Of a stretch of DNA of 64,000 bases, positions 3,201 through 20,619 are shown in pieces. Made by a program: the position numbers and the translations under genes. The stretch is from Picochlorum sp. SENEW3 (lineage: Eukaryota). How positions within the stretch are numbered: the stretch's first letter is position 1; each line of letters begins with the position of its first letter. The notes under the pieces were generated by a model. The model was given only the letters and a program-made list of their open reading frames with translations, was not told the origin of the DNA and did not search any database. The stretch is taken from assembly GCA_034226945.1 (NCBI GenBank), contig CP120454.1, forward strand, positions 248,001-312,000, given 5' to 3'.

Positions 3201-6200
3201 AAATGATGAAACAGTTCTCGATTATATTCGAGACCCGAAAGGTTTTATTTCCTCTGCATATGTTGCCTTTCTGAAATTAGATGACTCATTCAGATCACAA
3301 CACATCCAGCATAGCACCTCTCGTCAGGAGTCTCAATGCTTGTGTTTGAAAGCCATGTCAATGGTATACTGTCGATATAGCTCCATTATTGGGCCATTTG
3401 AGGAGCTATCTCACATTCTTAGGATTATGGATACAACTGGAAACAGGAAGATGCGATACTATTGTATGGAGCTGATTCATTCATTTATTTGCCCTGACCA
3501 CGTGGGTGACGATGATGAGATTCGAAGAATCGCAAAAGAAAATGCCATGAGATTGTCCCAGCATGAGGGCATTCCTCTCCTTTGTGATGCTGCAGCAACA
3601 ATCCATGAAGTCGTGAGCTCCTCCAGCGCGTCAAAGGACACAAAGTTGATTACCAGTGCATTTCAGGATATTGAGCCCAAGCTTTGGTTTTATGCGGGAT
3701 ATGATCTCCTAGATAAGGTTGCCATTGAGAATAAAGACGATCTGATGAAAACATTCAATATGAGGAAACAAGGACCAGTCACAAAGAAAGAGATCCGTTC
3801 GCTTTTCCGCAATGGGAGTATCGGAAACAGTACATATGTTTCTAGAATTGGAATGAAGTACCCAGCAGTTTTGGAAAGCATAAGGGAACTTTATTGGTGG
3901 TCTGCTGAAGGAGTCGCTCCTTTCTCAGAGAGAGATTTTTCCCTGACTGCTTTGGATGTGTTGACAGGAATATTCCAACTCTGTCCAGCAAAGGATCCGA
4001 TCAGTGGAATTCAATTACTTCCATTACCTATATGCCATCGACAAATGTCTAAGAAAACTTGCGTCTCTAGAATTGCTCAGACGTTGCTCACAAATGACCC
4101 TGAGTTCGTCAATAAATCATGCAATTTGCTCTCAGTCTATATTAGTCAGAATAGTGACGCTATGAAAACCATCTATCAGACAGGAATTTTCTTTTACATA
4201 CTAGCGTACAGTGGTTCTGACCTCATTGAAGCTGGGAAGTTCTTGAGATTATCTCATTTGCAGCAAAAATTCATGCAATCGGATGGGATATCAGCAACCT
4301 GCTCGTTATCTCAGAACTCTATTTTGGGAGATTTGTTGCCAGGTATGTGACTTTGCAGTTGTACTTATTGTAGCTTGACAACACTGTTATTTATTTTTTT
4401 CTACGATTGTACAGAATCTTTGCTTTTCATTCTTGAAAGCTATGGTCATGAAGCGTTCGCTACTGCAATCACAGGAAACTCTGAAAGTCCAGAAATTATT
4501 TGGACACATGAGATGCGCTGCCAGAAACTCATACCTCATCTATGGAATCACATAGGAGACTTTACCAGGCTGCTCAAAGAGTCTTGGTCAATTTCATATG
4601 ATTATTATCCCTGTCCTCCGATTGTGTATGAAGAGATTCAGGAAGAAATATGGTGTCATAGATACTATTTGCGCCACCTTTGCAATACTTCTCAGTATCC
4701 CAATTGGAACATAGTGGATCATGTCGAATTGCTGCAAGCTATATTAGGAGCGTGGAAAGCAGAACTTGCTAAAGTTGGAGTTCAAGGTATGAGCCTGGCT
4801 GAAGCAGCGAAGGTGTTGGAATTGGACCCTTCAAGTAGCATAGATGAATCTGAGATGAAGAAGGCGTACCGGAGACTTGCCAAAAAGTATCACCCAGATC
4901 GCAATCCTGCTGGTCGGGAGCATTTCCAGTTAGTTCATGATGCATATGTCAGGCTTCATTCTGCACGTGAAGAAATATTGGGGCCTAGAGATTGGTGTAT
5001 TCTGTTGTACCTCAAGGCGCAATGTTTGCTATACAGTCGCTATCCTGAGAGCCTTGCAGAATTCAAATATGCAGGATACCCATATCTTATTGCATCGCTT
5101 TCTCTATCGAATGAGATGGATAATGAAGAGTATGCTCAGATTTTGTCCGGCAAATTCATTCCGATTCTGCAGTCTTCCTTGCATCTCTGCTGGTTGACCT
5201 GTGAGGTTTCCGAACTAAATGCAGAGGAGTTGATGAGATCAGACGGCATCAGAGTACTGGAGAGCATATTTTCAAGATGTGTCTCCATCACATCCAGAGA
5301 AGCATCTTTGTCTGACCCTCAAATTTTCATAATGGTGAACATTTTGAAAACATTTGGTGCGATGGCCAAATTTGAGTCAGCCCGCCTAGATCTTGAGGAG
5401 AGGCACCAGTTGATGAAGGATGTCATCAGATGCTGCGAATTTACTCGAGCAACTAATGTCGTGGCATTTTCCTTACAACTGATTGGAGAGATGACAAATT
5501 CTTTGAGAGCTAGAACAACTTTGATTCAAGAAAAGGCCGTGACAACTTTGATACCTTTACTGTTTGGATATGATTGTGCTAGTACCTTGGACAAGAAAGC
5601 ATCTGAGAATCGGAGTGACAACACTTATGAATACTTGGGTAGTACTCCAAATGATGTTGTGAATACTCAGCAAGATCTTCACGAAATATCGTTGCTTGCA
5701 TGTGAAGCGCTTGCAAAGTTGTTCTCCCAGGCGGGGGCACCTGATGATGAGACAGATGTCGTAGACCTAGGAAGGAGAGCTTTCCGAGCATTATTTACTC
5801 CACCAGTAGCACAATATATATCTAGCGGTCACACGTTCTTGGGATATATAAACAATCACGTGCAGAATCATACAGTCATATGGACTGAAGGGATGAAATC
5901 CCAACTGGATGAAACTCTTCAGTCTCTTGAAGAGATGGAGTCTCATGCATGCTTAGTGAATGCTGCTGACACTCAATATGCGAATCTAGTCGGGGAGACT
6001 TATATATCAGGAGTATACATTCGTCTTTTTTGCGAGCGCCCTTCAAAAGAAGGATTTAAGGAAGTAGAATTCTGCAAAGATCTTGTTAAAGTCATGCACA
6101 CATTGGAGCATTTGGGAACCTCAGACTCTTGCACCATCACATCTGCTACAGATAGCTTAGAAAGGCCAGGAAATAAGATTGAACGCAGACAAGACGAGTC

Positions 6201-8089
6201 TTGGGAATCGATGATCAGTAGGAATATTATATTATGCCTCAGGTCACTCCAGAGCCTCCTGATGTTGTCCCCCAAACTACTGGGTCTCCTCTCTACTGTG
6301 GCGAGCATTGAGCCTATCGCATCGGTCTTGTTACAGGGATGTCTCTTCTGTCCTCCGGATCCATCTCTAGGAGAATTACAAGCAATCAATCATACTGCTG
6401 GCCCTGCATTTGTTCAGCCATGCGATATGCTGAATGCCACAGAAGTTAGCATCGCTGTCTTCGTGACTCTGTCATCCAATGCAAAATGCCTCACAGCGAT
6501 AGCCCAGCCGAACATTCCACTGATGCTCAGTTTTGTTATCGATGCTCCTCCCAATATGCGAATCCTGAAGGATGCGTGTGAATGTCTGTTCAATATGGCA
6601 GAGAAAGATGCCTTTTCAAGTTTTGTTTCAGAAGGAGGACTCTTGTACCTGTTAAAATTTGCACTTGGGGATATTCCTGAGGGACTCGAAGCAACAAAAG
6701 CATCGCAGTTGGTTGAACTAAAGCAATCATGTCTTCATTCAGTAATCAAATCAGCTTCCAACGGGTTGCATGGGCAAAAGGTTATTATTCTGCTGGAGAG
6801 ACTGCTGCCTAAAGGCCTGGTTGCACAGCTTATGGTATGTTCAGATATCAGAATATCCATGTGATAAGCTCCCTATACTTTCACCTTCTTTTGGTTGCAG
6901 GATGATGAAATAGACGCCGCCTACGAAGCGTTAATGTCTTCAAGGAAGACACCAGAAGTCATCTGGAACCCTGGTATGCTCCATGACTTGCAAGGCACTT
7001 TGGTTGATCTCTGTCAACAGGCCCGGCTAGATCAGCAGCGTGACCTAATATCCGGATCAACAAAGAAAGCGTCAGGATGGTTTATTCCAAAAGAATTCAT
7101 GATCAGATATGATGCCTTGGAGGGCCACACCGAGGTAGATGGGGTATTCATCGATTTGCTGTTACAAAACCCTGGTTATCCCATAAGGTATGATCATATT
7201 CTTTTTCTGAGGTGTATTCACCCTATCTTATTATCATATCAACAAATATTCGTGCAGAAATCCCAGAAGTCTTCTAGATGCATCGTTGAAGGCCTTTATT
7301 GATGAAAGCCAAGATTCGCAGCCCAAGGAAGACTTGGGATTGCCGGACTCTGCTCTTGTAGATGTCATATTGCTCCTTTTGAGCACCCATCCTTCATTAG
7401 CGGACTATGCGGTATCATCGGGTCATCTAACAACCATTTTTACCTTGATGAAAGATGTTTCCTTACAGAAGTCTGCAAGAGCCGTGAAGTACCTCAGAAT
7501 ATCCCATGCAATCTCCATCAGCAACATGTCATCAGAAGCAATGGCTAGAGCCCACCCTCCAGTCTTACATTCTTTAATGAAAGCACTAGAGGGATCTGAG
7601 TCGACGATGCAAATTCTATCCCTCGAGATTATAAAACGTGCCATGGGACCAACACAGAAAGCAAGAGATATTCTCATCAGATCAGGCCTTGATCTGAATC
7701 TGTTACCTGCCTTGCTGAACATTTTGAATTGGAAGGAAAGCGAGTCTATGGAAAAAAGCGATGCAATAAATATGATGCGCTTCTTATGTGTTGAGATCAT
7801 CCGACTAATGGAACTCGAAGGCCCTAACCAAGGTGCTGTAACATCAGCTGTGGCAGCCTCTCCTATTTGGGCTGCATATAAGGATCAGCGCCATGACATG
7901 TTCCTGCCATCTGGTGCAAATCAATCCAATAGTCTAATAGGAATGCTTGAGGGATCACAGCCTTACATGCTCGCAGCTGGGGAGAGCAATAATACTGAGG
8001 AAGAGGTACTGGGAGATGACTTGATCCAAGAGGTGATGAAGCAAGCTACAGAGAGCACAGCAAAGGATGAGGATACTCAAGACCTTTGA
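283..8089 (+). CDS. GRV2: DnaJ domain protein RME-8/GRV2 (DNAJC13 homolog), endosomal trafficking; 5 exons, ~2510 aa
   Basis: Five consecutive + ORFs joined by phase-consistent GT-AG introns 1871-1936, 4343-4414, 6835-6900 and 7188-7257. Central J domain (KKAYRRLAKKYHPDRNP), four IWN-type repeats (LIWNE, IIWTH, VIWTE, VIWNP), a GYF-like segment (WFYAG...QGPVTKKEI) and C-terminal WAAYKDQRHDMFL. Confidence 0.95.
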
Positions 8090-8232
8090 ACAAATTTAGA
8101 CTAGTGTTTGGCACTCATATGGAAAAGGTTATTGTTCAAGACGGTTTACTCCCATAAACAAGTGTCACGAACTATGGTTACAGGAATGTGCTACCAACCA
8201 ATTGTCAATAATATTGCCAATAGCATGCCCAG

Positions 8233-11200
8233 CTACATAGTCTGTAACATGTCGTATAAAATGTTTTCTTCTTCGCTCACGGGGACAGGGACCTCTGACT
8301 TGTTCCTCTTTAATCTCTCTACCTGATCATAATAGACCATTATGTGATGCTTTAATTGTCGCCACATGTCATTGTCTGAGATTACGTCTTCCAGCCCTTT
8401 CATCTCCCGCATCTGTCCCTCAATCAGATTTCTCACATCAAGAATTGTCGTCAGCATGCTATTAATTGCCTGGTTGATGTCTGGGGCATTGCAGCAGGAC
8501 AAGATGCGACGTGCAGCATCATAAATATATTGTCTGTGAATGTCAATCATATCATGAATTGTTTCAGGTCGTTCATCCGAAGTAGACTTGTGATCGAAAG
8601 CATGTTGTACCCGCTTCCAAGATGCCCCGCTACAGCAGTCCTTGTACATCTGAGAAATAGAATCAAGGTTACGGTGGCTCTCAAACAGGAACGAATGTAT
8701 CACTCTCAATCTACTCTTCCAAACAAGATATTCTGGTTCTGTATGCATTGATCTACGAATCAGATCACGAGGAGATACTAATCTGCGCAGAGCCTTGAGA
8801 GAAAAAAGAACTCTACTGATTCTCAGATTCATATTGAAAACAGCAGCATATGCAGTTAACGTTTCATCAGAAAATAAGGCACCCATCGGCCATGGAGGTT
8901 CGAATGATACGTATATGCAATCGTACGCATTTAATCCTGAAGGAGGAATCAATACAGGGGCCATCGCACTATAGTATGGTGCTTTGATCCGAATAGCATC
9001 AGAATACTCCATACCAACACCAAATGCTTCTTGCACATTGGTGAGAGCATTGTCACCAGGCAACAAGTTTATTCTGAGGTACTCTACAAAATCAGAAGTT
9101 CGTAAACTCGAAATTGTCGATGCTTCAAACAAGATACTTTTCGCCTGATGCAATGAGAGAGGCTCCAGCGAGAATACAAGTGGCTCTAGGGCCTGAACAA
9201 ATTCAGATAGAAAATCCCCTGCAAATCCCAGAAATACCTGCCTCGCAAATTCGACAGCCATGAAAATGTCCAAATAGTCAATGAAAAGACTTGTACACGC
9301 TCTGGATACCATAGAGGCCTGTATTAGCAGAAGATCTTCTATAGAGGTCTCAAGGAGCATGGATAAAGGCAAACTAGAATTCAAAAGCACTTTCTCACAT
9401 GCAGTCTCCTTTGATTTTACTGAAGCTTTCCAGGGCTGCTTCCTTCTGCTATTTCCTAATGTACTCTTTCTTTGCATTAAATTTCGCAACCACTGCTGAA
9501 CAATACGCTGCTTTGATGTTGAGATTGAACCATTCCTATCCTCCACTCTCTCTGACCCAACCATCAGAGAGCCATCTACTGCGCACTCAACATTGCCATT
9601 CAAGAAATCAAACTCCTTGCCAATATTTTGCATCTCGAACCAGTGTTTTGGATTGCATGTCTCATCGAACGGTACCCCAGGATGCAAGTCCTCCCTCTTC
9701 TGTCCCAGCGAGATTGCTACATCATCTACCCCATCAATCTTTAGTGAGACATAATACAGGAGGCGTAGTTGGGTTCCTGCAACCGCAAGAGCTCTCTTTG
9801 ACTCATTTGATAAGAAATTAGGTATATCAGATGGGCCCACGTGGCTAATCCATGCATCAGACTTTGGAACTTTAGTACCTCCATTGTAACTTGGGGCATA
9901 CAAAACATATTCATTGCTTAATGGCCCTGTGTAGGAAGACTCTCCGTCCAAGTCACGGACTCCAAATGCCCATTTATATATGACGGACAAGTATGGAGCA
10001 AAAGCACCCAAAAGAAGTCGTTTTGCTAATGCTGCATGATCACCTTCCATCGAAAGACTCTTGTCATAAATGTATTCTAGCAGGCGGCACCCAGAGGGCA
10101 GTGTTGTGCCCCCCTCATCATTCCCATCGAGCTCTAAAAACTCAAAGAGACGGGTAAGAACTGACTGGACTCGAGAAGTCGAATGAGATAACTGCAGAAC
10201 AGACAGGCCCAGCCCACAAAATTCTCCACCCTGGGCATCTGTTTCCTCGGGAAGAGCAATGATAGGGTCCTCAAAATCAAAAAATGATCCTCTGATTGGC
10301 ATTGATTTGTTATTTTTGACATCACATTGCCCTTGAAACCCTGTTGATTTCATTCCCATTGGTTGCACCCAATTATCTGCCCCAGACCACTCAATCTCAA
10401 CCAACTCTCTGTCAATGTCATGCAAAATATCTTTCAGGGTATTTGCAAAAGCATATGTGATTGGATCAAGTGTATCCTGAGCTAGGGTCGTGTGGATATA
10501 CGACTCGATAGACACCCTACAGGTCGCAGAGCGTTCAAACGATGACAACATCCCTGCTATCGAAGGCCGGGCTAGAGCCTCTGGCATTGCCAGTCTCCCT
10601 CGTAACTTTGCCAACGATGCCCGGATACCATAAAGAGCAAGGAGAGCTTCTCTACTTATCCTCGATTCCTCGCCACTCCACAGACTGTCATTCTTTTGCT
10701 GCACAGATACCTCCGGGACAAAGCTGTTCAGATTCTGCTTCTCAATACCCCTCTCTAGTGCGTCAAGCCGCCCACCATTGCGATATAACGCATCATATTT
10801 CGTCTCCAGCTTTTCAAACGATGTCATTTTTCCCGGAGAGTGATCAATAAACAAAGAGCCAATTGACACCTTTACAGGGGACTTTGATGGATGCCAAGAG
10901 AAGGAATCCTTTTGCTCTCCATTCACCGAACCATTTCCTCTACAGATATCAATATCGCGATGCGTGACTCGTCTCTTCTTCTGATCCACAAACCATCCAA
11001 GTGCCAGAGGCCCCTCCATATCAAGCCCGTCACCACTTCCACCAGCACAAACTCCTGGAATACACTCTGAGCTCGGCTCGTCCTCAACGAACAAACCCCT
11101 ATTCATTTGCATTCGACACGATTGATGATCAATCTCCTGCACACCACGATGCGACACACCATGCAACTCATTCTCCTCATCCTCTCCAGCAGTAATCCTT

Positions 11201-11652
11201 GTCCCCTCCAGACATCTCAAAAACTCCACAACGCGCTCTCCTTCTGTACACACAAAGCCAGTTTGCTGCACATCATTGACTGTACCAAACCCTGCTGGGA
11301 GAAGAAGGTCACATCGCCCTGATTCCCTGTTCAAACTAGACTCAGACTGACGCTTCACTGACAAACGCTGCTCCAATTCCCAGACCCGTCCCGAAAGGGC
11401 TCTATCCTTGATATTTTCATGAACACTGTCCAAACCATGGATATCTCGTCCATCAACCCCATCAACGGGACTTGACAGTTGTTCGTTCAATCCCAACAAA
11501 CAAGAAAACGCAATATCTCTGTACAGACGGTACAGCGCATCCCTCGTTCTTGATCCAATATACCCTTCATCAATATTTCCACCATCTTCTGTAGCAAGAT
11601 GGTAGCATAACGCGGATACCAGGTGAGGGATGCCCAACAACGACTCGGTCAT
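8233..11652 (-). CDS. Gamma-tubulin complex component (Spc97/Spc98 family, GCP6-like)
   Basis: 1139-aa ORF with GRIP-type motifs (PYLSVIYKWAFG, IPNFLS...AGTQLRLL, RQVFLGFAGDF, PPWPMGALFS...YAAVF, IDIHRQYI). The subunit number is inferred from size. Confidence 0.75.
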   Translation of the reverse strand: MTESLLGIPHLVSALCYHLATEDGGNIDEGYIGSRTRDALYRLYRDIAFSCLLGLNEQLSSPVDGVDGRDIHGLDSVHENIKDRALSGRVWELEQRLSVKRQSESSLNRESGRCDLLLPAGFGTVNDVQQTGFVCTEGERVVEFLRCLEGTRITAGEDEENELHGVSHRGVQEIDHQSCRMQMNRGLFVEDEPSSECIPGVCAGGSGDGLDMEGPLALGWFVDQKKRRVTHRDIDICRGNGSVNGEQKDSFSWHPSKSPVKVSIGSLFIDHSPGKMTSFEKLETKYDALYRNGGRLDALERGIEKQNLNSFVPEVSVQQKNDSLWSGEESRISREALLALYGIRASLAKLRGRLAMPEALARPSIAGMLSSFERSATCRVSIESYIHTTLAQDTLDPITYAFANTLKDILHDIDRELVEIEWSGADNWVQPMGMKSTGFQGQCDVKNNKSMPIRGSFFDFEDPIIALPEETDAQGGEFCGLGLSVLQLSHSTSRVQSVLTRLFEFLELDGNDEGGTTLPSGCRLLEYIYDKSLSMEGDHAALAKRLLLGAFAPYLSVIYKWAFGVRDLDGESSYTGPLSNEYVLYAPSYNGGTKVPKSDAWISHVGPSDIPNFLSNESKRALAVAGTQLRLLYYVSLKIDGVDDVAISLGQKREDLHPGVPFDETCNPKHWFEMQNIGKEFDFLNGNVECAVDGSLMVGSERVEDRNGSISTSKQRIVQQWLRNLMQRKSTLGNSRRKQPWKASVKSKETACEKVLLNSSLPLSMLLETSIEDLLLIQASMVSRACTSLFIDYLDIFMAVEFARQVFLGFAGDFLSEFVQALEPLVFSLEPLSLHQAKSILFEASTISSLRTSDFVEYLRINLLPGDNALTNVQEAFGVGMEYSDAIRIKAPYYSAMAPVLIPPSGLNAYDCIYVSFEPPWPMGALFSDETLTAYAAVFNMNLRISRVLFSLKALRRLVSPRDLIRRSMHTEPEYLVWKSRLRVIHSFLFESHRNLDSISQMYKDCCSGASWKRVQHAFDHKSTSDERPETIHDMIDIHRQYIYDAARRILSCCNAPDINQAINSMLTTILDVRNLIEGQMREMKGLEDVISDNDMWRQLKHHIMVYYDQVERLKRNKSEVPVPVSEEENILYDMLQTM

Positions 11653-11720
11653 TGATTTGACTTTTCACACACAATTTTCATGATTTGAAGCTACATTACA
11701 ATTCAAAGATACATTTAATA

Positions 11721-12827
11721 CTATTGTTGCAGTGTTCGACTGGTTAAATTCAATCTAGAAGCCCGTGCTCGCGGGATTGCTGGTAGCGAGCGAAATTGGA
11801 AAAACAAGACTGTGACATTATCTCCGGGGGTGCCAGCATGCAACACGTCCCTCTGGCGTGATAGCGCCGCATCAACCAGCCACGATGCACAGTGCATACA
11901 TGCGTCGGTGAAATCTCCAGAGTCTTCGAGCGTTTCTGCTTGGGTGGCAGGGTCAGATGTGACCTGACGAAGCTGCCGTCTCACATCGGTGATGACGGAT
12001 GATTCTGGGGTGTAATAATCCCATACACCATCCGTAGCAGCCACCATGAACTCGTCTAATTCATCGAGTTGTTTTTTCTTCACATCTGGGGTGCAAAAGA
12101 GAGGACCATGCACCATGGTATAATCATCATCAGCAGAACGCCACTTGAGTGGAGGGCCTAGATCATAATCTCCTAGGGTTCTACATACATTGATATCACT
12201 TCCACCGATGTGATCAGAGAAGCATGAGACGCCAGCTGCTTCAAAACGTTGCTTTTCAGACTCCACAGGCGGATTGTGGGATTCCGTGAGCCCTTGGGCA
12301 CCTCCACGAACAGACAGAACAGCCTTACAGTCCCCTACATTGCTCGTGTACAACATACCGGTCTCTAATACTATCAAAGCAATCAACATGGTGGTCCCAC
12401 CTGTCATGCGATCATTCTTCACGTGGGATTCGAATGCTAATTTGTCCAACTCATACATGCAGTCACGCAAGCCCTGTTGAATTGCAGAGTCAACGGTCTC
12501 CTCTCCATGACTACCTGGGATGATTCTACGCTGTATTATAGGTACTAGAACGCTAGGCAGATTTGCCACGCACATCTCGGAGATCTCGTGTCCATGGTGT
12601 CCATCCAACACAGCCCCAACTGTGCACCTGTACTGTGCACCCAAACCTCTCACATAGAACGAAAAGGCATTCCATCGGTCATCTTGGGTTTTCCTCCCAC
12701 CGTAGGAGCATCCCACGCCCATGCTAATACCCCTATGAAGAGGAACATCGTCACTCTCGTGCGTAGATTCTGTTGCAGACATTTTCCAGGGGGGAAGCGA
12801 TATACTACCAGGCTCTGAGTAGACCAC
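11721..12827 (-). CDS. Protein phosphatase 2C (PPM family)
   Basis: Motifs QDDR, VLDGHHG, SNVGDCKAVL, CRTLGD, ATDGVWD and GDNVT. Confidence 0.92.
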   Translation of the reverse strand: MVYSEPGSISLPPWKMSATESTHESDDVPLHRGISMGVGCSYGGRKTQDDRWNAFSFYVRGLGAQYRCTVGAVLDGHHGHEISEMCVANLPSVLVPIIQRRIIPGSHGEETVDSAIQQGLRDCMYELDKLAFESHVKNDRMTGGTTMLIALIVLETGMLYTSNVGDCKAVLSVRGGAQGLTESHNPPVESEKQRFEAAGVSCFSDHIGGSDINVCRTLGDYDLGPPLKWRSADDDYTMVHGPLFCTPDVKKKQLDELDEFMVAATDGVWDYYTPESSVITDVRRQLRQVTSDPATQAETLEDSGDFTDACMHCASWLVDAALSRQRDVLHAGTPGDNVTVLFFQFRSLPAIPRARASRLNLTSRTLQQ

Positions 12828-13238: not shown

Positions 13239-16200
13239 TTAAAATGGGCTCACAAGGTTCTTTCTTGGGCTCTGAGACTCCCCAGAGGCATCCTTAATTT
13301 TGCTGAGAATCACATGGAAATCAGGCCTGTCCTCTGGATTCCACTGGGTGCACAGGGTGACCAACTCACACAGAGTGGACATTGCCCGCTGTGATGCTTG
13401 GTCTAGTCCAGGGGGTATGGAAGGAGCTTTGAAACGCATCATTTCTGGATCAATTATCCATTGAGTTTGAATCTGGAATCCATCCATGTCACCAAATGGT
13501 CTTCTACGTTCCAGTAGCTCCCAGAGGATGACTCCAAATGAGTAGACATCTGCTTTTAGCATGAGTCCTGGATCTTGAGATTCTCCAGATTTCGGTGTTG
13601 TGGGGCTGAGTATTTCAGGTGCGCTATACGCCGCTGTGCCAATCACTCCAGGAGTGAGCGTTCTGTCAAGACCGCCGTTTGTGTAGTTGGTCCCTGATAC
13701 TGGCTGAGAGGGCTGTCTTTCCACGGCATATCTCGCCATACCAAAGTCACCAATCTTCATCACGAAACCATGTCCTATAAATATGTTTGCGGGCTTCAAA
13801 TCTCTATGGAAGATTGGCGGTAACCTTCTGTGGAGATGGTGCATTCCACGGGCAATGGATCTGGCAATAGGTAAAAGTTTTGTGGGATCAATTGTTGATG
13901 ATGCTCCCTTGTGAATAAGCATATCCAAAGTTCCACGGGGACATAATTCCATGATCAAATACGTATGTCCGACATTATGCGCGAGTCCACGTAAGTTTAC
14001 GACGTTATCATGCCAGCCTGCATGAAGGTGAATGTCAATTTCTGATTGACATGAGGCTCTCTTGACTGCAACAGGCGTTTCCTGGTACCATGCTGCATAT
14101 ACTGGACCTTCTACACCTTGTCCCAGCATTTTACCAAATGTGAGTTGAGAAAATTCAATCATCTCAACATTAATTGATGGATTCCTGGTCAAACTGCCAA
14201 TACGGTCAAGTGGTGTTGCCACCTGCGATTGACTACCATCGGTTGTCGTGCTGTCAGCATAGGCCATTCCAGCGTCAAACTTCATTTGCCATGCTTCTGA
14301 ATGAGGCGCATACTGCGATATAGTGGCATCTAAACTGTCACTTTTGTACATGGATTCGATAGCACCACCTCTTCGAAGTGGGCTTGGGGAACGCTTGTAC
14401 TGAGTGACTGGATGCTGTCCATCAGTGGAGGAGGGAGAATTGGTATTTCCAGTGTGAAGCAACCGATGGGGATCAACATTTGAAAAGCTTGATCTTCTTC
14501 CCTCGAACAAAAGATTTTCATGCCGTCTAGATACTCCAATCTTGCTTGGAGAGTCCCCAACATATGTAAAGGATCCGTGTCTGGGTGTCACGGTTCCTGA
14601 GCCAGTGTGACCTCCAGTTTTCGTCAGACCTAGTTCAATGTCATGCTGCAGCGAGTGAGCACCTGAAAGACGATTTGAAATGATTGGAGAGTGCAATGTA
14701 TCATTTCCTGTCTGTGGAGTTCCTCGCCTGCGATGTATGCCTCTGCCAGCTGATGCAATCACTGAGAAATGCTTTGCAGGGGTACCTCCTTCACCTTCAT
14801 CCAGGGACACCCTTGGCTTACATGATGACATGTATTCTGTATCATCACCGTCTCCATCCGAGGATCCTGTGCTATCTGTTTGATCACTAAATGCTTTCCT
14901 TGCTTTTGATGCTGCTGCCTGCAGTGCCTCCTTTGTCAAGAGACCTGCTGCCGACGGTCTCCAGGAGCCACTCGTCAGTCTACTTAACAATTTTGTTGGA
15001 GAATGTGGTTCTTTTTTTAGTGACTGACTCTGTTTCCGGAACATTTCTCGACCCTCGAGGCCATCTGGATTACCAAGAAGCATCACCACAAGAGTCAAAC
15101 CTCTGGCCCACTTTTCATGTGTCTCCATATCACGACACTTGAGCCGTAAATCAGGCTCCAAGGTGAACTTTAAGGTGATGGTTAGATTCTCTGTGCATGC
15201 AAGGACACTCTCCACATGCATGAGCAACACGTATTTTCTCCAGTCCCACCGCAAGGTGGATCCATCATGGGACAGTTGGAAAAACCTCCATTTACCAGCC
15301 GAGCTCACATTGAACGCTCCTAGCACCCGATTAAAGGATTTTGACGATACAATTCCATGATTCGTCTCGTTGGACGGCAGTTTCAACAACCACTCGCCAT
15401 GAATGAGCGGAAGCAGAGCTGATGGCACCTTGGCATGTCTCTGACGACCCCTGGTGGCATCCTCCCTCATTCCACCAGCTGTATCCATGGTTGTATTGTC
15501 AAATTGAGTATTTGCCTTCCATAAGTCTACTTTGTTTCCTTCATCTGGAAGCTTCCCGTACAGATCTCTGTGAAGAATTGCTAAATCGCTTCCTGACAAG
15601 AGCCTTGCATCCCACCATACAAAAGTCCTGCCAAACAGGAAAAAGACTGGAAATGCTAACAGATATGCCTGACCATGGATTTGTACTAGTGTATTACCAT
15701 AGTACACAGAAGAGAACATGTATGCCGCTGCCACAATATAACTGAAAGGATGCGAAAATTCTGCAAAGAGAGCCAGCCTGGGCTTTCCATACATGACTGC
15801 AATGCAACACACTGTCAGCCAGAGTGCTACTGCGACAACGCCGACAGTAGAAGCGACAAGTAAAGATGGAAGATATGAATCTGCTCCTGGATTGATACCA
15901 TTGATGACACCAACAATCAACAAAAGCGTCATCAATTGCACATCCAACTTTGCAAGAGCAACAAACCTATCCCTCCTCAAACTAGCTCGTCTACACCTAT
16001 CGATATTTGGTAATCGCATATCTCCTGCAATTTTCGAGTACATTCTCCAGCCAAAGCCTAAGTATGCCCATCTCGTCAGGCTCAGTGTGGCTACTTGAAG
16101 CAATGCACAGACAATGGCCACTGTGATGGATACTGTGTCCCGTCCAGCTTTCAACGAAGTCTACACACATACGGGTCATGAGCATAATATTAAAGCATCA

Positions 16201-16624
16201 TTATTGTACCATTACCCTCACCATACAATGCTTCTATAGCATAAGAACAAAATGCATCTCGTACCGAGTAGATAATAAGCTGAGCCAAGTTTAAGCCCCC
16301 ACTGGCCATGGATACCAGCAACTGATAGGCATTCTCTAGCCAAAACGCATCCAGCACAATACACAGGAACATCACCGCTGATACTAACAGCAATATCAAG
16401 TCTTGCAAGTTTCTGGAATCTTCCTTGGACAACTCGGTCACAGCAAAGGCTCCTGACACGCAGGCTTGCACAATACAAAGCCCTAAAAACAACTTGCAAG
16501 GCTTTGGCAGTGAGCCCCACAGCTGCCACACCCCGAGCCTTTGTTCTTTCCCTTCCATTTTCTGTATTTCATTAGAACGATTTTCACGATCGTCAACAAT
16601 CATGGTTGTCATTGCCTCATTCAT
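13239..16624 (-). CDS. Multi-pass membrane protein kinase: ~8 TM helices + PH-like domain + TKL (Raf-like) kinase; 2 exons, ~1093 aa
   Basis: Exon 1 is 16624-16265 (MNEAMTT...), phase-0 intron 16161-16264 (GTAC...GTAG), exon 2 is 16160-13239. Kinase motifs GQGVEG, VAVK, HRDLKPAN, DFG, GTAAYSAPE and DVYSFG. PH-like WRFFQLSHDGSTLRW...EKWARGL. Confidence 0.85.
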
Positions 16625-16938
16625 TGTACCAACTGTATGCAACCTGGTAGGTGTCACTCTACTCGCACCCTCCGACACACACAGTGTATGCGGCGCAAGA
16701 AGACCTATCCAATGGTATTGAAATACTATATAATGATATGTACACAAAAGATGGGTCACAAATTCTGGTACGCGGCTATGCCCGTCACTGTCCAACCAAC
16801 CGACCAACCGACCGGCGACTGTTGAGTCATACACAACCGCGATGTCACGAGAAGTAAAGAGAGAATCTTTTTTATGTATAAAATTGCACTGGGTTTTGCA
16901 GCGTAAAAGTCCTGTTGGCCACGTCATGCAATGATGAT

Positions 16939-16986
16939 GGCAGCTGCCTCGAGGCAGCCCTGCCAATGATCTTCAGCGCTGAAGAT
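16939..16986. repeat. Cluster of perfect palindromes upstream of the TM-PH-kinase gene
   Basis: GGCAGCTGCC 16939-16948, GCTGCCTCGAGGCAGC 16943-16958 (16 bp) and ATCTTCAGCGCTGAAGAT 16969-16986 (18 bp). Confidence 0.9.
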
Positions 16987-17404: not shown

Positions 17405-17968
17405 TACTCTTTTTCTTCTATTTTATATAGTGATTTTGTAATCGCAATCCACGGCGATACGAGTCCTACGAGTGAGAATGACGCGAACACTACCGCGCGT
17501 ACAGGGTCGTCGTATAGCGGGGACCAAGGGAAAGAAATGCTTTGATTACCCTTCTCACGAGAGATGTAAATATATAACAATTCTAATTAATAGTAAGCCT
17601 AGTGAAACCATAGTGCGCAGAGACGATCCTGATGGGGTGGGGGATGTCGAATAGAGCATCCCATCAATCTATTCATTCGACCGATGTAGAATATCATTGT
17701 TGCGATCATTCTGTTTTGGTCTCTGAGATGGACATTCCGACATGTCACGCAAGCATTCGAGCAGTTCTTTTGTAAAATAACTGTATCTCTCTATTGCCAA
17801 AACCCAAATTTTTATACAAGATACGTACATACTGTGGGGCTTGCTAAGTTTGAGAGCAAGCGAGATACTGCAACTAGAGTTTGGTGACACAACTGCAGCA
17901 GTGTGGGACCCTTGAGAGGAACACGACTACCTATTTCTATAGCCTTGACACTTGGCTGTACGTAAATC

Positions 17969-18994
17969 ATGCTAAGGGTGGCTCGGACGCGCATCGCGAT
18001 GATGCTGGTGAGGAGAAACTATGCAGAGGGGATTTGTTGTAGTTGTGTGGATGCTCAATATGCTCGAGCGTATTCAACAGCACCCAGCGGAGTGCAGCAT
18101 GATGATGGATCCCGAGGCCCGAGTACATCAGATTCAAAAACGGTTGTTTTACTATTCGGGTGGCTGGGTGCTGCGGATCGACACTTGCTCAAGTATGTCG
18201 ATGTGTATGAGAGTTATTTGCACGAGACCAATGTTCTTGTTGTCAAACCCAGTATTGCAGAGACAAGCATGCCCAGTGTTGGGGAGAGAAATATGGTGGA
18301 ATCAATGAGGGAGAGAATACTTCCTTGGATTCGAGAAGAAAAACGGGGGAGGTCGAATGTACATATCATCATCCACTGTATGAGCAATGCAGGGTGGATT
18401 GCGGTTGGAACCATGTTTTACATGGAGCAAGAGTTGAGAAGGACCCTGGCCGACATGCATGTTCGGGATGATGCGACTGCAGTAGACGATGGAATAATGC
18501 AGGATAAAGAAGAATTAGAGCGAGATCTTCAGAGCTGGGAGGAGATGCGGACACACTTGAGAGGTATTGTGTTGGACTCGTGCCCAAGCCTTGCACTCCC
18601 AAATGTGTGGGCAAAAGGCTTGATCAGTGCAGTGACTGAGAAGAATGCGTCAGAGGTGGGGCACACATATCCCTGGATTTTATCCATGGCCAACTCCCTG
18701 TCTCGGAGGTACTTTGATTCCCCGGAGGTTTTGAAACGTTTCCGTAAAATTCGAGAGGCATGGAATGTGCACATCCCAAGGGTCCCACAGCTATACCTGT
18801 ACTCGACAGCAGACGCGCTCATACCCCATTCCCACGTGGAATCATTTGCTTCTCAGCAAAGTACGCTAGGATCTGATGTATTTACGGCCCCATGTACTGA
18901 TGCTGATCATTGCGCCATTTTGAAAAAGCATCCTTCAGACTATAGAGCCCATGTGTACTCCTTCCTCGATAAACTCATTACCCATCATGAATGA
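17969..18994 (+). CDS. DUF829/TMEM53-family alpha/beta-hydrolase-fold protein
   Basis: Motifs VLLFGWLGA..RHLLKY, HCMSNAG, VLDSCP, PQLYLYSTADALIP and a C-terminal H. Confidence 0.88.
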   Translation: MLRVARTRIAMMLVRRNYAEGICCSCVDAQYARAYSTAPSGVQHDDGSRGPSTSDSKTVVLLFGWLGAADRHLLKYVDVYESYLHETNVLVVKPSIAETSMPSVGERNMVESMRERILPWIREEKRGRSNVHIIIHCMSNAGWIAVGTMFYMEQELRRTLADMHVRDDATAVDDGIMQDKEELERDLQSWEEMRTHLRGIVLDSCPSLALPNVWAKGLISAVTEKNASEVGHTYPWILSMANSLSRRYFDSPEVLKRFRKIREAWNVHIPRVPQLYLYSTADALIPHSHVESFASQQSTLGSDVFTAPCTDADHCAILKKHPSDYRAHVYSFLDKLITHHE

Positions 18995-19003
18995 ATGAAT
19001 ACA

Positions 19004-19900
19004 TTACCATCGCCTTCTATATCGAAATGATAGATAATACAATACACCTGTAACAATACCCATGAAATTCCCAGCATGATTCAGAGGAGATGATGATGAT
19101 GAAGGATATCCATCAAGAATTCCTCCCAAATCATTCCAGACCCACAGCAGACCCAGCAGAGCCGCAGGCATGGGAATCAGACCATACAAGAGTATCGTTT
19201 GTTGCGGATACATGAGTATCGATACAATACCGATTGACTGCACGCTACCTCGTGCACCATATAACGGCGTATCCCTCCTGCCAAACCGTCGACGTGTCAA
19301 TGGAGACCCATCTGCATACAGGTGGGTTATATTTGAAGCTACTGAGCCAGCCAGATATAGACCCAACACCGTCTTCCCACCAAATAATCGCGCCACATTC
19401 GCCCCAAAAAAGTACAATGCTATCATATTCGCTGCTAGATTCCCAAACTCTGGGTGGGAGAATGCATTCGTCACAAGAGTATGTGGTCTGCTGTAGACTG
19501 AACTCCCAGTAAGCACAAAATGCCTCTGACAAAACCGTGGATTAGACTTCCATAAAAGATATACTGCACCATTGATCCCTATAATAGACCAGATCATTCC
19601 ATTCCCGTAATTATTGTATCTATCTATACGGGATATCCAACCCATCTTCGAAGATGAATTCATCATCTTGCTGCTCGAATTCCATCGCCTCTTCAAGTTG
19701 TCGCCAATCGAGCGAAAGAATGACGCATTACACCCTGATTCTATGGTATATGCTCTCGAAAACGCATGTAAAAAAGAAGAAGACGAAGCAAAGCAAGAAG
19801 AAGAAGAAGAAGAAGAACAAGAGACCCCCTGCCGTGCTACATGATTATACAAAAGGGAGAATCGAGTTGAAAAATCCCTCGCCACTCTACCGAGGCTCAT
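19004..19900 (-). CDS. Rhomboid-like membrane protein (PARL/RBL12-like), probably catalytically inactive
   Basis: Rhomboid layout (IIGINGAVYLLW, TLVTNAFSH...NM..LYFFG, LYLAG, YP...LLYGLIPMPA). Start ATG 19900 gives an R/S-rich organellar presequence. GARG replaces GASG. Confidence 0.8.
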   Translation of the reverse strand: MSLGRVARDFSTRFSLLYNHVARQGVSCSSSSSSSCFASSSSFLHAFSRAYTIESGCNASFFRSIGDNLKRRWNSSSKMMNSSSKMGWISRIDRYNNYGNGMIWSIIGINGAVYLLWKSNPRFCQRHFVLTGSSVYSRPHTLVTNAFSHPEFGNLAANMIALYFFGANVARLFGGKTVLGLYLAGSVASNITHLYADGSPLTRRRFGRRDTPLYGARGSVQSIGIVSILMYPQQTILLYGLIPMPAALLGLLWVWNDLGGILDGYPSSSSSPLNHAGNFMGIVTGVLYYLSFRYRRRW

Positions 19901-19986
19901 TGCACATACGACTAAACATGTATTTAATACATGTATTACATATAAATAGCACCTTGTGTTGATCAAGCAGGCTGAATGACATTTTA

Positions 19987-20619
19987 CTACAGACAATCCC
20001 GAGCTGCTATCCGGCACACAATGGCATCCACCAGGGACCCAATCTGCAATTCCTGATCAACTATTTTATACGCCTTGGTTATCGCCTTTTCATCACGACA
20101 CGTGTCTATATACGCATTGATATCCTCCTCCTCCTCCAAGATACACTCGTTGCTGGCAACAAGGTTGCGTAATGCATTCATGTCCTCATCAGAGGCATCA
20201 AACTTGGCAACCAACAGACATGCCGTGTCATCTTTGATACCAAATGTTCCCAAGGAAGAGCCGATATGTTTCGACCCCGACAATGAATATACTAGTTCTG
20301 AATGCAATGTTTTTGTTCTCAATGTACCACGTGCATGATGCTGCAACGCCAGTCCCGCAGCTGCTTTGACAATGAGCAGATGAGCAAGTGTGCCTGCATC
20401 AATCAATGCTGCTTCTGGTTCCAATGTTCCAGACATGAGAGACTGTCTCAGCTCACTGCATCGCACAGGAAATCCTCTCCATCATCAACACCACTCATGT
20501 ATATATGTAGACAGGAATCTATAAAAAAGGGAAGAGCACACCTACCGTGCATTGACAAGTTGAGGGACCAAAAATACTGACAACGTGTGCTCTGGGAAAG
20601 CATCAAATGTCATCATCAT
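19987..20619 (-). CDS. CGI121: KEOPS/EKC complex subunit CGI121/TPRKB; 2 exons, ~180 aa
   Basis: Motif LRTKTLHSELVYSLSGSKHIGSSLGTFGI. Exon 1 is 20619-20546, with a phase-2 intron at 20456-20545. Confidence 0.9.

Follow-up and report, generated by a model that had tools for sequence, protein, structure and literature searches.

Proteins in which a seven-transmembrane (7TM) domain is fused to a kinase, named GPCR-TKL/K and GPCR-PIPK, have been described in choanoflagellates (acanthoecid ones for GPCR-TKL/K), oomycetes and amoebozoans (PMC12716839). According to that article, none of these fusions has been functionally characterised, and it reports none from green algae. We analysed a window of 64,000 nucleotides (nt) from the trebouxiophyte green alga Picochlorum sp. 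SENEW3 (assembly GCA_034226945.1, contig CP120454.1, positions 248,001 to 312,000 of the forward strand; positions below are those of the window). A gene on its (-) strand encodes one polypeptide of 1093 amino acids (aa) in which a PH domain stands between a polytopic membrane domain and an intact TKL kinase. It resembles GPCR-TKL/K in that a multi-pass membrane domain is followed by a cytosolic TKL-type kinase in one chain, but it differs in having eight helices, both ends predicted to be cytosolic, and a PH domain and a ~300-residue linker before the kinase. We rejected a 7TM receptor domain of the GPCR-TKL/K kind as a candidate, with eight helices found in both of our fold models and with Foldseek rows for GPCR and GPCR-BRIL entries at TM-scores of 0.10-0.17 and root-mean-square deviations (rmsd) of 24-29 Å.

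The receptor-like kinases (RLK/Pelle) of plants likewise belong to the green lineage and, as membrane-bound Ser/Thr kinases, to the TKL group in its wider sense. They are single-pass proteins with a ligand-binding ectodomain, whereas the algal protein has eight helices, non-cytosolic loops of 2-9 residues and no ectodomain, and on these features it was rejected as an RLK/Pelle receptor kinase. Among solved structures its kinase lies nearer to MLK/Raf, and the best 60 PDB kinases include only one RLK (SymRK, E 6e-18). An initial annotation, made from the sequence alone, had set the protein apart from single-pass plant receptor kinases and regarded its architecture as undescribed. The first point agrees with the eight helices and the missing ectodomain, and for the second we found no published description in the literature searched. 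The design is kept across green algae and has apparently never been studied.

We favour, with a probability of about 0.6, the reading that the protein is an integral-membrane MAP3K-like Ser/Thr kinase (TKL, MLK/Raf-like) that would be gated by lipid or by its membrane domain. The core of the initial annotation, one polypeptide with all three parts, proved to be real and conserved, as judged by the match to the NCBI protein P0001, to the related locus L002 and to further relatives. The gene and its product are composed as follows (TM, transmembrane helix).

16265..16624, (-) strand: exon 1, with the ATG at 16624; 120 codons, residues 1-120. From the AlphaFold2 (AF2) helices, it holds the predicted cytosolic N-terminus with W36-x-x-L39-P40, TM1, TM2 and most of TM3.
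16161..16264, (-) strand: intron of 104 nt, GT..AG, phase 0, read from the sequence.
13239..16160, (-) strand: exon 2, with 973 codons (16160-13242) and the stop (13241-13239); residues 121-1093.
15576..16519, (-) strand: eight-helix membrane domain, residues 36-315, spanning the intron; two four-helix units, a putative divergent double DUF7789.
15051..15428, (-) strand: PH-fold domain, residues 365-490, with RFFQLSHDGSTLRWxW and K380...K410-W-R412; found by AF2, Foldseek and VIA.
14166..15050, (-) strand: linker, residues 491-785, enriched in Ser/Thr/Pro, with no Pfam family.
13299..14144, (-) strand: kinase domain, residues 793-1074, TKL (MLK/Raf-like) by sequence, with intact motifs.

When joined and translated by script, exons 1 and 2 give a protein identical letter for letter to P0001, which NCBI lists as 'Mitogen-activated protein kinase kinase kinase 20 [Picochlorum sp. 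SENEW3]'. The intron begins GTACGAGATG and finishes ATGTGTGTAG, and its retention leads to an in-frame stop. Exon 2 is a single stop-to-stop open reading frame (ORF) that holds TM4-TM8, the PH domain, the linker and the kinase. Metagenome contigs supplied five related loci, of which two, L002 and L003, were examined. L002 is intronless at the proposed splice site, and one stop-free ORF of 1138 codons carries the whole protein, reading '...LAQLVVYSTSLSAGRD...' across the junction or, over a longer stretch, '...LNLAQLVVYSTSLSAGRDTVSITV...'. L003 has two frames, the first ending '...LAQLIIYSVSVSIL*' and the next starting 'FDVVVVQTSLIAGRD...', and the short phase-0 intron between them sits where Picochlorum has its own. 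Trebouxia and other orthologues align across the splice site without a gap. Because the L002 orthologue is intronless and L003 carries an intron at the same site, we regard the join over 16161-16264 as confirmed. The initial annotation had proposed this join and had named RNA-seq as its test; comparison upheld it, but the RNA check did not. Thirteen runs were listed, 12 of them with the stretch or part of it, and four (X1, X2, X3 and X7) were compared with the gene; the exon-exon joint was seen in none of the four. X1 and X2 behaved like DNA, with the intron covered, and are probably DNA. Coverage in X3 ends before the junction. Only X7 is certain to be oligo-dT RNA-seq; it gave five identical contigs of 151-206 nt, all within exon 2.

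We consider it highly improbable that two neighbouring genes, one for a membrane-PH protein and one for a kinase, were misread as a single gene. Such an artefact would fit the absence of an RNA read spanning the gene and the NCBI model of the Ostreobium orthologue, which is split into 594 aa and 391 aa. Against it, TM4 through the kinase form one stop-free frame of 973 codons in the window, the L002 relative has the whole protein in its one 1138-codon frame, the Ostreobium gene is modelled elsewhere as a single 944-aa protein, and a transcriptome-derived ORF of 1095 aa has all three parts. At the 5' end of the gene, ~115 further codons without a stop precede the annotated ATG in frame (16625-16972, (-) strand), with an earlier Met ('...CMTWPTGLL...') among them. 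Homologous proteins have N-termini that correspond to the annotated start, and this segment is therefore probably a 5' untranslated region.

We modelled residues 1-500 with AF2 from a 32-row family alignment (mean predicted local distance difference test (pLDDT) 82.9, predicted TM-score (pTM) 0.79). The model shows eight helices, at residues 41-67, 70-95, 99-122, 129-164, 173-209, 218-244, 247-273 and 283-310, followed by a low-confidence tether at 330-357. This agrees with the roughly eight hydrophobic helices noted initially, of which six reach a mean Kyte-Doolittle hydropathy of at least 1.5 and the other two are weaker. The non-cytosolic loops in the model have only 2, 6, 8 and 9 residues, and the TM4-TM5 loop contains nine Lys/Arg. 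Given the even number of helices, these nine basic residues and the cytosolic nature of PH and kinase domains, we infer that the N-terminus and everything after TM8, including the PH domain and the kinase, are cytosolic. Loops of 2-9 residues leave no ectodomain, and any sensing would therefore take place within the membrane.

Conservation in the membrane domain was assessed in the 32 family members, with residues kept in at least 75% of them. These are W36, L39, P40, D92, A93, E97 and N98 in the N-terminal part, F156-G-W-R159, Y161, S162, D167, R169, K191 and D193 in the middle, and P258 (in TM7), R298 and W302 in the C-terminal part. All except P258 lie, in the AF2 model, at cytosolic helix ends or on extensions of TM4 and TM5 that project into the cytosol. 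Because the outer loops are tiny and conservation is on the cytosolic face, a classical ligand receptor is unlikely. The initial suggestion of a receptor or sensor kinase is not borne out by the four short outer loops, the lack of an ectodomain and the cytosolic position of the conserved residues.

Profile searches support the membrane domain as a divergent double DUF7789, near stand-alone DUF7789 proteins. The Pfam model (PF25044) has 129 positions and a gathering score of 25 bits, which was passed only by two Trebouxia orthologues, P0036 (31.6 bits, two stretches) and P0037 (30.7 bits). P0035 and P0171 reached 16.5 bits, and exon 1 of the Picochlorum gene alone gave 13.7 bits (E 0.06), below the cut-off. 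In P0035 and P0037 the profile covers the first half of the domain; in P0036 it covers the second. At E<=0.01 it matched 5 of the 32 family members, and at E<=0.001 none of 55 representatives. P0001 would belong to DUF7789 because it is homologous to the Trebouxia proteins (E 4.5e-35), and only through them. Stand-alone DUF7789 proteins share with it the four-helix unit of ~129 positions, present here twice; they differ in that they stop after the membrane domain, and in that the Picochlorum protein falls below the Pfam cut-off. In the ESM Atlas, used as a lead only, the clusters nearest to residues 30-320 consist of stand-alone DUF7789 proteins of 285-327 aa (score 0.90) from chordates, Mucoromycota and microsporidia.

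The initial annotation had further divided the helices into two four-helix units. This division stood in that the halves 39-156 and 172-323 of the 1-500 model each align to four-helix bundles and that DUF7789 matches either half, but it was not seen in the direct comparison of the profiles of half 1 and half 2, which showed no similarity (hhalign probability 0.7%). With halves so dissimilar, the duplication would be old. A search with the family profile for stand-alone DUF7789/UPF0658 proteins, and another with the Trebouxia membrane domain among shorter proteins (E<=10), yielded members of the family and exon-sized fragments but nothing else. P0041, P0045 and P0109 were considered as stand-alone membrane proteins and rejected as fragments, since the start of a PH domain is present in them. 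No UPF0658 sequences appeared among three word-indexed searches and an exhaustive phmmer search. DUF7789 and UPF0658 are probably one family; the resemblance of DAFWLENAYQL and FVALAKLD to fungal UPF0658 proteins, proposed in the initial annotation, is putative. We found no paper on DUF7789, and in the UPF0658 papers examined the family is only a name in gene lists, with none on a kinase fusion.

These data bear on whether the DUF7789 domain does more than hold the kinase in place. As a pure anchor it would only position the kinase on one organelle, such as the Golgi or an endosome, and would carry no signal, with regulation exerted wholly by the PH domain, by linker phosphorylation and by partners. 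We find this doubtful. The very short non-cytosolic loops would suit an anchor, no solved relative hints at a pocket or pore, the fungal protein name 'UPF0658 Golgi apparatus membrane protein' hints at the Golgi, and stand-alone DUF7789 proteins are widespread in eukaryotes according to the Atlas lead. Eight helices are nevertheless more than an anchor needs, and the polar residues D92, E97, N98, FGWR, K191 and D193 are near-invariant across three classes and two paralogue lines.

A second fold model was made of P0124, a membrane-domain-only relative of 386 aa (pLDDT 81.4) that is without a PH domain and may be cut. Both models have eight helices. The best fold matches of the membrane domain are generic four-helix bundles, among them the talin rod (Z 16.2, residues 155-296), uroplakin, LCI1, TTYH and claudin, and their scores lie within or near the chance range stated by the tool for helical models. 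Searches of both models with Foldseek and VIA found no solved structure matching all eight helices, which does not prove a new fold. In another reading, the DUF7789 domain would have an activity of its own, as a transporter, a channel or a scramblase-like protein, which the kinase and PH domain would regulate or report in the manner of a 'transceptor'; the membrane domain would then not control the kinase. Conserved charged and polar residues at the helix ends and the conserved P258 in TM7 point in this direction, as do the occurrence of the family without a kinase in other eukaryotes (again an Atlas lead only) and the Ser/Thr-rich linker, which could be an autophosphorylation substrate. We judge such a self-regulated membrane protein to be distinctly unlikely: solved transporters and channels match only as generic four-helix bundles, the rows for LCI1, TTYH, claudin and tetraspanin (Z 9.7-13.5) are inside the stated noise for helical models, and no activity is known for DUF7789.

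Regulation by lipid, the other part of the favoured gated-kinase reading, concerns the PH domain. The initial annotation had placed a PH-like domain after the helices, and the AF2 model confirms it with a core pLDDT of about 90-97 and the PH superfold, a seven-stranded beta sandwich (376-381, 410-416, 422-424, 430-432, 436-442, 447-452 and 458-461) with a C-terminal helix (465-483). Foldseek gave a probability of 1.00 to many PH domains, and among its top listed rows all are PH or PH-like except ranks 13 and 49, which are multi-domain RhoGEF entries. The best Foldseek match is PLC-delta1 (1mai), with a TM-score of 0.68 on the target, an rmsd of 2.4 and an E of only 5e-3. VIA, an aligner independent of Foldseek, also found phospholipase C PH domains, namely those of PLC-gamma1 (Z 12.8), PLC-epsilon (Z 13.1) and PLC-delta1 (Z 12.8). 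For the last two the alignments cover 95-102 residues at 2.3-2.6 Å, with 95 residues, 2.3 Å and 22% identity for PLC-delta1. Taken together, residues 363-487 resemble the PLC-delta1, -gamma and -epsilon PH domains at Z 12.8-13.1, rmsd 2.3-2.7 and up to 22% identity and share their basic residues in strands 1-2; they differ in giving no sequence-model match and in having 25 residues inserted into the loop between strands 1 and 2, a feature confined to the Picochlorum clade. PH_12 matched only a few relatives, at 16.8-24.1 bits, short of the cut-off of 27.

Across the family the core 'RFFQLSHDGSTLRWxW' is nearly invariant. K380 is 94% and R412 93% conserved, and most rows have K, R or H at position 410. 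Phosphoinositide-binding PH domains carry the pattern K-Xn-(K/R)-X-R in strands 1-2, and the K380...[K/R/H]410-x-R412 arrangement in the same strands is compatible with the phosphoinositide regulation that the initial annotation had thought possible. For dozens of short proteins (P0065-P0098 and others) the match is confined to the PH signature 'RFFQLS.D..TLRW.W', with 40-50% identity, and P0076, P0089 and P0106 are PH-plus-kinase models without the membrane part. The PH-only short proteins may be exon fragments of the family or may represent the module in other architectures.

Beyond the PH domain, the long linker and the intact kinase proposed initially were both recovered. Ser, Thr and Pro make up 29.5% of the linker (residues 491-785), compared with 20.3% of the whole protein. 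It contains one conserved helix-like stretch at ~512-541, in which L512, A536, A537, A540 and R541 are nearly invariant. On the kinase, Pfam found PF00069 Pkinase (E 3e-36, residues 796-1073) and PF07714 (E 4e-31), with no other Pfam family on P0001, and NCBIfam gave only sub-threshold bacterial kinase models. All five catalytic motifs are present: GQGVEG at 800, VAVK at 817, HRDLKPAN at 905, DFG at 925 and APE at 967. The best PDB kinase is ZAK/MAP3K20 (5hes, E 5e-25), followed by DLK, CTR1 and B-Raf, and the best 60 PDB sequences comprise ZAK, DLK, CTR1, B-Raf/A-Raf, RIPK1/2, TAK1, MLK1 and SymRK. By these matches the kinase is of the TKL-group Ser/Thr type and MLK/Raf-like.

ZAK (MAP3K20), DLK (MAP3K12), CTR1 and B-Raf are thus the closest solved kinases (E 5e-25 to 1e-18), and the HRDLKPAN loop is of the same Ser/Thr type. 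They are soluble and reach membranes via partners, whereas the algal protein is built into one and has no SAM, leucine zipper or RBD by Pfam. CTR1 acts at a membrane. Orthology to ZAK/MAP3K20 was rejected, given the lack of a leucine zipper and SAM domain by Pfam, the C-terminal position of the kinase and the eight membrane helices. ZAK and DLK share only the kinase with the algal protein, and on sequence comparison the names 'MAP3K20' and 'dlk-1' that NCBI gives to the two Picochlorum paralogues are therefore best-hit labels that do not denote orthology.

In addition to the protein described here, the same strain encodes a colinear paralogue on another contig (P0327, 1168 aa, the NCBI 'dlk-1'), which is 26% identical in the membrane-PH part (E 2e-40) and 44% identical in the kinase (E 2e-67). 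A word-indexed search returned 39 relatives. A phmmer search with residues 121-490 against 1.84 billion representatives gave 142 matches at E<=1e-3, all of them kinase-linked family members or PH fragments. Pfam recognised the kinase as well in 13 of the 55 longer representatives scanned; among the remaining ones, many are exon-sized or truncated. The search across chlorophytes called for in the initial annotation found the architecture in three classes. Members in the Trebouxiophyceae are Parachlorella kessleri, [Myrmecia] bisecta, two Trebouxia, Auxenochlorella, Chlorella sp. A99, Chlorella variabilis, Helicosporidium and three Picochlorum; those in the Ulvophyceae are Bryopsis sp. and Ostreobium quekettii, and the Chlorodendrophyceae are represented by Tetraselmis striata. 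All named members are 'hypothetical' or automatically named. Among the named matches none is from Chlorophyceae, prasinophytes or streptophytes; only about a quarter of the database proteins carry names, and absence outside the three classes is for this reason not established. P0171, the 1095-aa ORF of a transcript from a transcriptome source, has matches to DUF7789, PH_12 and the kinase.

A quick tree of 25 rows placed the clade of the window protein with Chlorellales (support 99) and separated a clade of the paralogue P0327 (support 100), which includes a transcriptome-derived relative. Trebouxia/Myrmecia, Bryopsidales and Tetraselmis form a third, open group, and the branches of Tetraselmis, Auxenochlorella and Chlorella A99 are long and unsure. 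These comparisons show the predicted architecture to be kept in three core-chlorophyte classes and in at least two old paralogue lines. At NCBI the Ostreobium orthologue (P0042, P0204 and P0205) is entered, probably through an annotation error, as a 594-aa 'PH domain-containing' protein plus a 391-aa kinase; EukProt has a single protein of 944 aa.

A mechanism that would join these parts can be outlined. The double-DUF7789 domain would fix the kinase in one membrane and present a conserved cytosolic face. To this face we assign the motifs WxxLP and DAxxxEN, FGWRxYS on the helical stretch that prolongs TM4, KLD where TM5 begins, and R298/W302 beyond TM8. The PH domain, tethered ~55 residues after TM8, might bind to the head groups of acidic lipids in this membrane, to the cytosolic face, or to both. 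Its binding would set the activity or the reach of the kinase on its ~300-residue Ser/Thr-rich and probably phosphorylated tether, and the kinase would phosphorylate cytosolic targets, possibly a MAP2K. Any signal, be it a small hydrophobic ligand, tension or the lipid composition, would be read in or at the membrane and not via an ectodomain.

Several points weigh against this reading. With respect to function, membrane, ligand and substrate it is wholly computational. The AF2 model comprises residues 1-500. DUF7789 had no match on full-length P0001 (E<=0.05) or on residues 1-500 (E<=0.01). Pfam PH models found nothing on P0001 at E<=0.1, a PH-domain profile had 0 matches to PDB sequences at E<=5, and the predicted lipid binding hangs on the basic pattern in strands 1-2. 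Transcription of the Picochlorum gene is only weakly hinted at by X7, where DNA carry-over is possible.

The neighbouring genes look unrelated to the kinase gene. Directly downstream on the same strand lies an ORF for a PP2C phosphatase (11721-12827, (-) strand; PF00481, E 2.4e-30), and a PP2C-like ORF also follows the L002 orthologue (7081-8160). The adjacency could be plain synteny or a kinase/phosphatase pair, and because L002 is a close relative its recurrence tells little. Other long ORFs nearby are the following.

4351-6864, (+) strand: DnaJ-domain protein.
8233-11664, (-) strand: gamma-tubulin complex component (GCP_C_terminal).
17966-18994, (+) strand: DUF829 protein.
19004-20056, (-) strand: rhomboid protease.

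Fusions of multi-pass membrane domains with kinases are not known outside a few groups of protists. Compared with the known 7TM-kinase fusions, the new elements are a different eight-helix module (DUF7789), an intervening PH domain and green-algal hosts, which include fast-growing, salt-tolerant Picochlorum strains used in biotechnology. The analysis also corrects the misleading database names MAP3K20 and dlk-1. The family offers a tractable entry to the role of DUF7789/UPF0658 proteins and to how chlorophytes couple membrane state to MAP3K-like signalling without receptor kinases of the plant type. A bolder proposal, which we hold to be unlikely, would make the double-DUF7789 domain itself the sensor, responding inside the membrane to lipid composition, membrane tension or osmotic state and connected in one chain, through the PH domain, to a MAP3K-type kinase. 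If this were true, chlorophytes that do not have the receptor-kinase repertoire of plants would start a kinase cascade from a polytopic membrane protein, and the protein would open a first route to the function of the DUF7789/UPF0658 family, which is uncharacterised and occurs across eukaryotes.

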